A stretch of DNA of 64,000 nt, from IMG/VR virus record IMGVR_UViG_3300042554_002914; one strand, given 5' to 3'. The notes beneath the pieces are model-generated. The model was given only the letters and a program-made list of their open reading frames with translations. It was not told the origin of the DNA and made no database searches. This DNA is from a virus (lineage: Duplodnaviria; Heunggongvirae; Uroviricota; Caudoviricetes). The translations under genes were made by a program, and so were the position numbers. This document shows positions 9,815-13,651 of the stretch, in pieces (position 1 is the stretch's first letter; each line of letters opens with the position of its first letter).

Positions 9815-10216
9815 TCAGGTTAAAGGTAACCGCAAGCTAGGCAAGAATCCGAGGCATAGCCCCGAAACTTTATCATTCACCCTCCTGACACCAACAATGT
9901 AGTTGGAAGAAAAATACTCACCGGGTTGCGGGATAACGTAGTTATACTTGACAATCTGCCAAATTGGAACCAGAAAAAATGCATGTTCCAGGTCTTCGAT
10001 GCCCTTTACACACAACTTAGCCAAGAGTCTAGGGGTATAGAGCTGGCAGTAGGTTTCGACTTCTTGTACAGTCCCGACTTTATCGTAAAGATTAGCGGGA
10101 TCATCGATGCAACTAAGACCTTCCGATTCTAGTTGTTCTTTAAGTCTTAGTTGCTTTTGGCATTCGTATGTAAATGAGTCCACGAAAGTATCCTGGTCGT
10201 TTGTATGTAAGTTCAT
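9815..10216 (-). CDS. Hypothetical protein
   Basis: 133-aa ORF overlapping the helicase stop codon (ATGA). Confidence 0.6.
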   Translation of the reverse strand: MNLHTNDQDTFVDSFTYECQKQLRLKEQLESEGLSCIDDPANLYDKVGTVQEVETYCQLYTPRLLAKLCVKGIEDLEHAFFLVPIWQIVKYNYVIPQPGEYFSSNYIVGVRRVNDKVSGLCLGFLPSLRLPLT

Positions 10217-13200
10217 ACTTTTACCCCCTTCGCTTCAAACATTTTTTCGCAAGCTTCTTTCCTAAGAATTTCAGCCCTATCTGGTGAATAGCCCTCGTTT
10301 GCCATCCATTTGTCTTGGCATTTAGCTTTAGGATCAAGGATCCTATTTTTGTAGACACCTTCGACTTCACCCAATAGCCCGATTGCCTCGCGGACCAGGT
10401 CCTCTTGGGCATAGCGGCAGTTTTCCCAGTTTTCGATGATGTAGGAAGCTTCGCCACCAATTTTAAAGCCATCCCTAAGGACTAACTTTTCAATCATCTC
10501 CTTGATGATCATCAGGGAAGTTTTTTCTTTAGTTTCCTTCCTAGCGCCAGTAGTCTCATCAAAGAGCATTTCCCGGCCAAGTGAAATTGACTTCTTGACT
10601 GATTCCCACCTTAGCTCTCTGAATCCCTGATAGTAGTGGGTAGAGGGTCTACCTACATTGCACCAGTTATCCTTAAGTAAAGGCATTAAGTGTTGGCAAC
10701 TGGGGTCAACCCCCACAAAATAGAGGCTCTCCAGGTAATCATAAAGGACATTGGGTGTCAATTCCGGCATTCTTTCATCTATGTTTCCTGTGCGGATAAA
10801 ATGAGCAAACGCCATAGCATTGACTAGGGCCTGGGTAACATCTGCCTTGAATCGAATTCTTTGCCGAGTCGTCCAATAACGGACTTCAACTTGGAGGCGA
10901 TTAATGGTGGGATCAGAATCGTCGTTGATGATGTCTAGGAACCTATCAGTACAAAGCCTTAAGCACCATAGATACAAAGCATCTTTGCTTACCCCTAGTT
11001 TTTCTTCGAGGAACGGTATATGAGACTTTGGCCTGAGGTCAGGGGTGCCTTCAGATACGGTGCCTCCCAGATTTTCCTTGTTTTTTGCTACCTCATATTC
11101 TCTGAATGTGCTGATTAGCTTGATGCGGTCAATACCTTGTATTAAAGAAAGGTCGTTAATCTTTCCCCAGGGGTTTACCCTGCTGAATGTTACCATTCAG
11201 AGTAGACTATATCTTCACCCTTCGTTTCCTTTAGGTTGGAAGGGGACACTCGTTTCGGGTCACTTGACCCTACTCCCTCTCGGGATAGTCGTTAGGCGTG
11301 ACCTACTCCAAATAACCAAACTCGATCTTCTTTTCCTTCAGGAGGGTTTGCGCCATTTCAAACGCCTTCCTTTTGCCGAGTTTGTTTATGTTGAACTGCT
11401 TAGTGAATCTTATTTTGGTAACGGGGTGCGTCAAGTGAACACGATAGTATTTGTAGTTGTTGTTTTCCCGATAGGAAATACCTATCGTCCCCGTGTTACT
11501 TCGAGCCCATGTACGCCGGGCTTGGGTGTTACCTTGCTGAGACACAATTCTCAGATTCTGTTTTCTATTGTCTAACCTGTTACCATTGATGTGGTCAACC
11601 ACAGTTGTGCGACTTGGTAAGCGGTCCATTATCAGATTTGCAACAGACCCCATGCCTTCCTTAGAGCAGTAGGCATACCCTGTGTTAGATACTCGCATTT
11701 TTCCAACTTTTGCGAAATCCTCCACATCTAGAAAAACAGAGTGCTTGTAAATTTTAGATTCAACAATTACTTCTACATATCCGTTATGTAGAATAGCGGT
11801 ATTCTTGATCACAGAAATCTCCTTGACTTCAAGGTGAGTAGGTTTATTAGCACGGGATTGTCCTTATAGCAAGGAGTTCCCCCGTTTAGAGTGTGTTTTT
11901 TACTGAGCGTTACCGCCCAGGGGAACTAGAGAGTTAATCCCCGGATCGAGGTCATAAGCAAACTTACTATTCCAATCATTGGAGTTCAGGAGCATGACGG
12001 TTTTAGGCCAGATTTGCTCTGAAGTTTGGAACTTGTCTTCTACTTGTAATACCATGTGTTCAAACGGTGTCGCTAGTTCCGTTCCGGGACTTAACCCAGC
12101 TAAATGTTACCATTTAGAGCAGACTATATCATATTCCCTTAGGAATCTTCCCGTTTCGGATCGCTTGATCCTACTCTCTTTCGAGATAGTCGTTAGGCTT
12201 CGTATCCCCATGGTTTCATGCCTGAGGTATAAAACTCTGAAGATACCTTAGCACGGTAGGTTGCCCTTAAGTATCAAAGGGTATTCCCCGTTTAGAGAAG
12301 TTTTCTCTCGGACATTACTGACCGAGGGGGCCACTAGTTAACCCATTTGTGATCATGATCTTAGTCTCCTCAGCAGAAAGGAATTTCTTAAGAGAAGATA
12401 AGGATGTGTCGTCTTTATCCTATTGTTCGGTCAAACTTCGTTACAGTTCAACCCGAGGTTTCCCTCAGCTACAGGTTTCCCAGTAGAGCAGACTATATCT
12501 TCATCCCTACTTTCATAGGGAGCTTCGCGTTTCCCCTCACTTGAGGGTACGGAGTAAACTCCTAGTCGTTGAGCCTCTTTAACATGTTGGTACCATATTG
12601 AAGTTGGCTGCTGATTGCCCATTGTTTCATCCTCTAGGATTATTAGTTAGTGTTGAGCCAACTACCCGAGGCTCTTAGGGGTTTCCAGCAAATAGCGAAG
12701 TTTTACTTGCGCAAAAGTCTACGCAATGTCACTCATCGCAAAGGACTTAACACCAAATCGTTCTTCAGTGGACTTAAAAGTCCAGATCGAAAATCCGCAT
12801 TTGGAAAAAGCAGCGGTCATACTGTTAAAGCATTCGGATTTCCCAAGTCCAGGATCCTTACCAACTACAACCCCTGCCATACGGGCAGTATGTTGAACTG
12901 CTTTGTCTTTACCTGGTGGGAGGTGATTAGACCTACCTACCCCAATCCTCCCAATAATTAGCTTGAGAATTTCTAACTCAGCTTCTGGAAAAATCGTGAA
13001 TACATCCGACAATTTAACCTGACGAAGCACAGGATCAAACCAATCCCTGTCCGGGACCCAAATCCGGGGATTAGTTACAACAGTTCCCCCCAATCTAGCC
13101 ATCGGATCAAACGTATGGGCAAAATCAAACTCTGGGTAGAAGTTTTTCGATTGGCTGATTTTCTGCATCTTCAACAGACGGGCCGTAAAAGAAGCTAGAT

Positions 13201-13651
13201 CGCTATCGCCCGGTTTCGGACGGTGTAGCGGCTCCCAGAAAGTTCGAACTTCATCTTCGCACAACCCAGGATAAAACACCTTCTCAATGTCTTCAAAATC
13301 TGCCATTTCGGTGATGTCTTGAAGTGGTTTGAAGGTATGGGGATACTTAATCCCTTTGACTTCCGGGGGGGCCGCAGGTTTTAGGATCCGGTGATTAACG
13401 TGGGGTGCGCCTTCTACGAGGTCCAGGATGTAACCCTTCGCCTTTAGTAGGGCAATACCCTTATTATACAACTCACTTACCCTGACAGGCTCTTTTTTCT
13501 TCTTACCTTTCTTGTCTTCGGAGTCTTTTGGATTCTCCCCCTCGTCTTTTTCTGAGGAAAAAACCCTAGCCTTCTTCAATTCTTGGGCTTGATTGAAAAT
13601 GGCGATTTCTTGTTTGGTACTCCCTGTACCACCTGAATAGGGGTCTGGCAT
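10213..13651 (-). CDS. SF3/D5-like helicase (AAA+ ATPase), four exons: 13651-12721, 12418-12341, 12051-11937, 11134-10213; 681 aa spliced
   Basis: Exons sum to 2046 nt in frame and join Walker A GKDPGLGKS, Walker B IAY|KDD, motif B' ITNG|LLQVEDKF, motif C VMLLNSN and the Arg finger DPGI|IDR. Confidence 0.85.
11135..11936 (-). mobile_element. Group I intron 3 (802 nt, IA2-like) carrying an HNH endonuclease
   Basis: 5' site GGGGAU|UAACUC with P1 partner GUUCCC; P/Q elements AAACGGGGGAAC and AAUCCCGUG; R AACGACUAUCCC; S GAAGAUAUAGUC; terminal G. Confidence 0.9.
11303..11812 (-). CDS. Intron-encoded HNH homing endonuclease with AP2-like C-terminus
   Basis: VVDHINGNRLDNRKQNLR; SNTGTIGIS...KQF; GTG start with AAGGAG SD; lies between the Q and R elements. 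Confidence 0.9.
   Translation of the reverse strand: MIKNTAILHNGYVEVIVESKIYKHSVFLDVEDFAKVGKMRVSNTGYAYCSKEGMGSVANLIMDRLPSRTTVVDHINGNRLDNRKQNLRIVSQQGNTQARRTWARSNTGTIGISYRENNNYKYYRVHLTHPVTKIRFTKQFNINKLGKRKAFEMAQTLLKEKKIEFGYLE
12052..12340 (-). mobile_element. Group I intron 2 (289 nt, ORF-less, IA2-like) in helicase
   Basis: 5' site GGGU|UAACUAG with P1 partner GCCC; AAACGGGGAA, AACGACUAUC, GAUAUAGUC core; terminal G. Confidence 0.88.
12419..12720 (-). mobile_element. Group I intron 1 (302 nt, ORF-less) in helicase
   Basis: P1: exon UUGCGU pairs with intron GCGCAA (U.G at the splice site); core CAACGACUA and GAAGAUAUAGUC; terminal G; frame restored. Confidence 0.88.

Follow-up and report, generated by a model that had tools for sequence, protein, structure and literature searches.

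The window analysed here, a stretch of 64,000 nucleotides of the Caudoviricetes virus record IMGVR_UViG_3300042554_002914 in IMG/VR, carries on its minus strand (13651-10213) a helicase gene that is divided into four exons by three group I introns. We consider it highly probable that this is one gene for a superfamily 3 (SF3) helicase of the D5/NrS-1-like type, interrupted by three mobile group I introns of subgroup IA that resemble the td intron of phage T4, and that its exons are ligated after transcription. The boundaries of the introns can be placed exactly, their removal restores a single open reading frame (ORF), both the introns and the endonuclease cassettes within them are present in some close relatives and absent from others, and joined exons are found in RNA libraries. 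All three introns would be self-splicing. The source is an uncultured freshwater (lake) jumbo phage, probably a cyanophage, and the window belongs to a record of 129,961 bp that is estimated to be 46% complete.

Exons and the reassembled helicase

The ORFs listed for the minus strand include products of 310 amino acids (13651-12719) and 327 amino acids (11196-10213), which flank a third one of 169 amino acids (11812-11303), and gene callers yield two 'hypothetical' ORFs and an HNH gene where a core replication gene resides; the annotation of that gene is corrected here. When positions 13651-12721, 12418-12341, 12051-11937 and 11134-10213 are joined, the resulting 2046 nucleotides form one ORF of 681 amino acids whose only stop codon is the terminal one, as the initial annotation had proposed. 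The same division can be read from PHROG 25243 ('DNA primase', 610 profile positions), of which the exon 1 ORF covers positions 11-273 and the exon 4 ORF positions 342-585, the gap of about 68 positions between them corresponding to exons 2 and 3. A Pfam search with the separate exon products found no significant family.

Exon 1 (12721-13651, minus strand like the other exons, 931 nucleotides) encodes the N-terminal domain, the Walker A motif (GKDPGLGKS) and the beginning of Walker B, and its 3' end reads ...GCGU. Walker B is completed (KDD) in exon 2 (12341-12418, 78 nucleotides), which extends into motif B' as far as its first half. Exon 3 (11937-12051, 115 nucleotides) supplies the other half of that motif, then motif C (LLNSND) and the stretch to DPGI, and exon 4 (10213-11134, 922 nucleotides) encodes the arginine-finger region (IDRIK) together with the C-terminal domain. 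The motif names follow general usage for SF3 helicases. In the joined protein GKDPGLGKS, IAYKDD, KIMITNGLLQVEDKF, LLNSND and DRIK all fall within about 120 residues (residues ~263-380), and the three introns are confined to 1.6 kb of the gene. Intron 1 is inserted at the Y311 codon of IAY^KDD in Walker B, the codon preceding KDD (the caret marks the insertion site), intron 2 at the L337 codon of ITNG^LLQ in the middle of motif B', and intron 3 at the I375 codon of DPGI^IDR, two codons ahead of the arginine of DRIK that represents the arginine finger. The earlier statement that Walker B, motif B' and the arginine-finger region are each interrupted thus stands, with I375 located just before the finger. 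All three insertions lie in catalytic motifs, as they should if invariant codons are what homing endonucleases select.

The joined frame agrees with relatives in which the gene is continuous. Across residues 295-395 the joined protein aligns without a gap to every one of 120 listed continuous metagenomic homologues (644-699 amino acids), in which the columns of the helicase motifs are invariant or almost so, and the residues at the junctions are conserved as well (Y311 and I375 in 120/120 homologues, L337 in 113/120). The closest cultured relatives with a continuous gene are Synechococcus phage S-CBWM1 (662 amino acids) and Acaryochloris phage A-HIS1 (605 amino acids); the exon 1 product is 50% identical to gp061 of S-CBWM1, and the joined protein aligns with both orthologues gap-free through all three junctions. 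A comparison with orthologues that lack introns had been suggested as a check on the exon structure, and S-CBWM1, A-HIS1 and the 120 homologues are all colinear with the joined protein.

Family assignment rests on the domain PF19263 (DUF5906), which matches the A-HIS1 orthologue with 41.8 bits (cut-off 27.6) and for which a precomputed match exists in nearly all of the 120 homologues listed. In relatives the gene carries the annotation 'DNA primase'. In vaccinia D5 and in the polymerase-helicase of phage NrS-1, DUF5906 is the AAA+ helicase domain of SF3 type (PMC9611036). Single-sequence and profile searches of the PDB for the helicase gave no meaningful match, the NCBIfam search none for the helicase homologue, and an ESM Atlas search with the ATPase segment returned scores of at most 0.86, which serve as leads only. 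That the exons belong to a single SF3 helicase gene, as the initial annotation had it, is supported, and the helicase is of the DUF5906 (D5/NrS-1-like) type.

The split gene would encode the replicative helicase of the phage, and probably its sole one, because a complete relative (G001, 279,339 bp with terminal repeats) shows neither a second DUF5906 copy nor a DnaB-type helicase; six-frame searches of that genome returned no DUF5906 match and no DnaB-type (DnaB_C) match, helicase families other than these two being outside the search. DUF5906 goes undetected in G001 because the introns break the domain and no second copy exists, which bears out the expectation that standard annotation misses the gene.

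Ribozyme structure and intron boundaries

Intron 1 (12419-12720, minus strand, 302 nucleotides), an IA-type intron without a full ORF, and intron 2 (12052-12340, minus strand, 289 nucleotides), which is ORF-less, are matched by the Rfam family RF00028 at 12750-12469 with 83.2 bits and at 12350-12100 with 54.9 bits, respectively; both values exceed the curated cut-off of 50 bits. Intron 3 (11135-11936, minus strand, 802 nucleotides) carries an HNH ORF in the loop of P6, and in a permissive search only its 3' half was matched (11485-11183, 32.5 bits). This low score is due to the ORF, which splits the ribozyme: the ORF-less intron 3 allele of a relative (L009:7708-7978) reaches 64.7 bits. The check by a group I covariance model that the initial annotation had called for is thereby passed by introns 1 and 2 in the window and by intron 3 in its ORF-less form.

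The Rfam matches end about 50 nucleotides short of the true 3' ends because the Rfam model stops after P9, and P9.1 and P9.2 are located in the remaining stretch. The 3' ends given by Rfam, as well as its P1 for intron 1, which lies inside the exon, were discarded, and the boundaries were set by alleles with empty sites and by RNA contigs. These leave an ambiguity of 1-2 nucleotides, within which the register of the initial annotation alone gives a U at position -1 together with a terminal G. In the folds of the splice sites, P1 is formed by UUGCGU^AG with UUGCGCAA in intron 1 (8 bp) and by GGGU^UA with UGGCCC in intron 2, while in intron 3 it is formed by GGGGAU^UA with UAGUUCCC, both in the fold and in the Rfam alignment of the L009 intron 3. 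The U at the end of the 5' exon is part of a U.G pair in P1 in all three cases and all three introns end in ...GG (terminal omega-G), so that the U.G-containing P1 helices and terminal G described earlier are confirmed by the folds and by the intron ends.

The core of all three introns comprises P7 (GACUA...UAGUC), the hairpins P7.1 and P7.2 before P3' (AACG), P8, P9 and P9.1/P9.2. An RNAalifold consensus of six copies recovers P2, P7, P7.1, P7.2, P8, P9, P9.1 and P9.2, with 29 of its 70 pairs preserved via changes on both sides, and P2 covaries even between strains carrying intron 2, where one C-G pair is switched to A-U. The 3' cores show 72-76% nucleotide matches to the td introns of T4-like phages. 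From this similarity and from the architecture, rather than from a formal classifier, the three introns would be placed in subgroup IA2 (T4 td-like). In-frame stop codons follow the 5' splice sites immediately in intron 1, after 8 codons in intron 2 and after 12 codons in intron 3; an early in-frame stop at this place is usual in phage introns.

After transcription each ribozyme would fold, and the last bases of the upstream exon would pair with the internal guide sequence to form P1, with the U.G pair at the cut. Self-excision driven by guanosine would then ligate the four exons into an mRNA for the 681-amino-acid protein. At the level of DNA the introns would act as mobile elements whose endonucleases, encoded in peripheral loops, cut intron-less alleles during co-infection, and repair of the cut allele would copy the intron in.

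Joined exons in RNA libraries and intron-free alleles

Joined exons were found in two RNA libraries, a lake-water metatranscriptome (X2) and a freshwater-sediment metatranscriptome from a separate study (X1). A contig of 378 nucleotides in X2 follows 12862-12720, skips 302 nucleotides, continues through 12417-12339, skips 289 nucleotides, covers 12049-11935, skips 802 nucleotides and runs into exon 4. In X1 a contig-supported joint skips the 289 nucleotides of intron 2, and a second joint of equal depth connects exon 1 to exon 2 with an exon 1 end of the type known from strains without intron 1 in their DNA (L012-type); the two joints may come from one contig or from two. The junctions predicted in the initial annotation (GCGT^ATAAAG, GGGT^TATTAC and GGAT^TATTGA) are matched exactly by RNA-library contigs. 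In two further RNA runs (X3 and X4) coverage of the gene was too low to inform on splicing.

Several observations weigh against the reading of one helicase gene whose three introns are spliced out, and those at the RNA level concern the origin of the joined contigs. The evidence consists of assembled contigs and not of raw reads, RNA libraries can contain DNA, intron-less alleles exist in DNA at sites 1 and 3, and the same libraries also hold unspliced or intron-containing contigs that extend over an intron-exon border and could derive from precursor RNA, from excised intron or from DNA. The group I introns could hence be real while the joined contigs are DNA or transcripts of intron-less strains, in which case splicing in vivo would not be demonstrated by the data; the X1 contig with the L012-type end of exon 1 does represent an allele without intron 1 in DNA. 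We regard this explanation as very unlikely in view of intron 2, whose removal alone is without an alternative at the DNA level. It is carried by all ten distinct DNA records compared, and all 11 contigs retrieved with a pattern for exon 2 only contain it; a pattern search for the joined exon 2-exon 3 form gave no match among 2.9 million contigs of viruses and 241 million of metagenomes, yet this form is present in the RNA libraries of both studies. Since it is absent from the DNA collections, removal of intron 2 is seen in RNA libraries only.

On the side of the gene and its introns, intron 3 as it stands in the window stays under the Rfam threshold, for which the ORF insert accounts. DUF5906 was scored on the orthologues rather than on the joined product of the window, and the S-CBWM1 orthologue reaches 25.2 bits, slightly below the cut-off. 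An AlphaFold2 model of a continuous homologue (P0001, alignment of 16 sequences) has a mean predicted local distance difference test score (pLDDT) of 61.9 and values below 50 over residues 227-376, the ATPase core, which is too poor for confirmation of the fold. A gene in fragmentation or decay, with the 310- and 327-amino-acid ORFs yielding separate products or dead ones and with intron-like elements that have ceased to splice, would agree with the separate ORFs that gene callers give and with the empty DUF5906 search of the complete relative. It is nevertheless extremely improbable, as the exons are open and in register, exons of only 78 and 115 nucleotides encode invariant helicase motifs, compensatory changes preserve the ribozyme helices, joined transcripts are observed among the RNA-library contigs, and the complete 279-kb relative has no second DUF5906 or DnaB-type helicase. 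All three introns lie, to the base, at the coordinates first assigned to them, as the empty-site alleles and the RNA-library contigs show.

The ten distinct DNA records, whose exons are 89-99% identical, differ in their introns. Intron 1 is missing in L012, L014 and L015 and intron 3 in L011, L012 and L014, and each empty site lies exactly at the junction predicted from the window. Around the empty site 1, L012, L014 and L015 share 8 changes between positions -5 and +16, one of which alters the protein (Ala to Ser), even though exon 1 of L015 is otherwise 98.6% identical; around the empty site 3, L012 and L014 have 9-10 changes over ten codons, all of them synonymous. Clusters of synonymous changes near insertion sites are a usual signature of homing or co-conversion. 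Those at the empty sites would fit co-conversion during homing, or selection for sites that resist cleavage.

In L011 the empty site 3 (L011:8183-8254, corresponding to window positions 11972-11937 and 11134-11099) has flanks that are identical to those of intron-bearing alleles over 36 nucleotides on each side, and it represents either a precise loss of the intron or a naive, uninvaded target. In exon 2, the stretch upstream of intron 2 (12341-12365) has two synonymous haplotypes among the window and its relatives, ATCATGATCACAAAT and ATTATGATTACGAAT. Which of them a strain carries is unrelated to whether it has intron 1 or intron 3, a pattern suggestive of recombination within the gene between strains.

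Intron reading frames, kinship and known systems

The ORF within intron 3 (11303-11812, minus strand) encodes a predicted HNH homing endonuclease of 169 amino acids that begins with GTG, with AAGGAG at 11824-11819, 6 nucleotides upstream of the start. It is matched by Pfam PF13392 (HNH_3) with 33.6 bits (cut-off 24.8) and by PHROG 99 (E 3e-15), while the NCBIfam search gave no match for it. In L008 the same loop of intron 3 holds a GIY-YIG/NUMOD3 endonuclease gene in place of the HNH gene, and in L009 and L010 it is empty, leaving an intron of 309 nucleotides. Intron 1 of the window contains an ORF of 63 amino acids (12431-12622, minus strand), which corresponds to the first 8 and the last ~50 residues of a 231-amino-acid ORF in intron 1 of L011 and looks like the product of an internal, in-frame deletion of it. 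The L011 ORF (L011:7030-7725) starts within the ribozyme core and runs through its 3' half; it had no Pfam or PHROG match and was for that reason not assigned as an endonuclease; possibly it encodes a homing endonuclease that is as yet unclassified. The statement that only intron 3 keeps an HNH ORF therefore holds in the window, tempered by the remnant in intron 1 of an ORF that is intact in L011. The predicted cutting of intron-less alleles near the insertion site by the HNH protein finds indirect support in the presence/absence polymorphism and in the recoded empty sites. Together the relatives form a natural allele series in which sites stand empty with or without recoding, one intron occurs in three endonuclease states and another has its ORF either intact or deleted. 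The series offers material for studying homing, the specificity of the endonucleases and resistance gained through synonymous recoding.

Within the genome, introns 2 and 3 are more closely related to each other than to any other intron. They had been described as having nearly identical core elements, which is right only in part and overstated: several blocks of 9-14 nucleotides are identical, a strict BLAST comparison gives 69% identity over 124 nucleotides, and a gapped global alignment gives 81-83% over the positions aligned. Both start with UAAC and share blocks in P3 to P9.2, the helices being those of the Rfam and RNAalifold consensus, and their insertion sites are alike (GGGU^UAUUA for intron 2 and GGAU^UAUUG for intron 3, matching at 7/10 positions). 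Tentatively, and with considerable doubt, introns 2 and 3 might be sister copies that spread within the gene by ectopic insertion directed by the guide sequence (reverse splicing), followed by exchange of the endonuclease cassette in the P6 loop (HNH, GIY-YIG or none), with the empty site 3 of L011 as a case of loss or a naive site. If true, the lineage would be a natural system for watching a cycle of intron gain, decay and loss.

Mobile IA2 introns in phage genes of DNA metabolism are classical, as in td, nrdB and nrdD (sunY) of T4. The introns of the window are like these in having P7.1/P7.2 and P9.1/P9.2, an endonuclease ORF in a peripheral loop and an early in-frame stop, in hitting conserved codons of a DNA-metabolism gene, and in varying in presence among close relatives. 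They differ in that T4 has one intron per gene and three are found here in one gene, and in that the T4 hosts are genes of nucleotide metabolism whereas here the gene hit encodes an SF3 helicase and the phage is an uncultured jumbo phage from freshwater. Three group I introns that self-splice, in one gene with short internal exons, are reportedly present in orf142 of Staphylococcus phage Twort, where Landthaler and Shub are said to have demonstrated exon skipping in 1999. The present case is similar to orf142 in the three introns and short internal exons of a single phage gene; it differs in the host gene and the phage lineage, and is accompanied by population data (empty sites, and one intron in versions with an HNH gene, with a GIY-YIG gene or without an ORF).

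A multiply invaded helicase gene had been regarded as an unusual target, a view tempered by introns reported in helicase genes of Staphylococcus myophages (PMC5526547). Group I introns in phage helicase or primase-helicase genes are likewise mobile, often come with HNH genes and lie in ATPase motifs of a replicative helicase; as far as described there are one or two of them per gene, against three in the SF3 (DUF5906) gene here. No report of introns was found in the literature for an SF3/D5-type helicase or for a helicase/primase or replication gene of cyanophages, a search whose incomplete coverage makes this weak evidence of absence. The kind of element, the IA2-type mobile intron of phages, is hence well known, and the case is unusually well documented by relatives that vary in their introns and by RNA data from lake water. 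It extends the range of phage genes in which group I introns have settled to an SF3 (D5/NrS-1-type) helicase, and its main value lies in the corrected annotation, in the insertions in catalytic motifs and in a natural allele series that is backed at the RNA level.

Group I introns are also found elsewhere in these genomes. The complete relative G001 has 17 RF00028 matches, which all fall in two places, the helicase gene (3) and a single region at 72-78 kb (14). The helicase introns were considered as copies of introns in that region, an origin that was rejected, only blocks of 19-35 nucleotides in or near the conserved core (including the P7 strand GAUAUAGUC) being matched; by this comparison they form a lineage separate from the introns at 72-78 kb of the same genome. 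Two more group I introns lie outside the window, at the start of a contig (L003, G000:C1:1-2557), at 551-766 and 826-1057. One of them scores 92.7 bits and the other 32 bits with an HNH/NUMOD3-like ORF of 225 amino acids at 65-742; a very short exon lies between the two, and a short terminal exon that ends near 1222 follows them.

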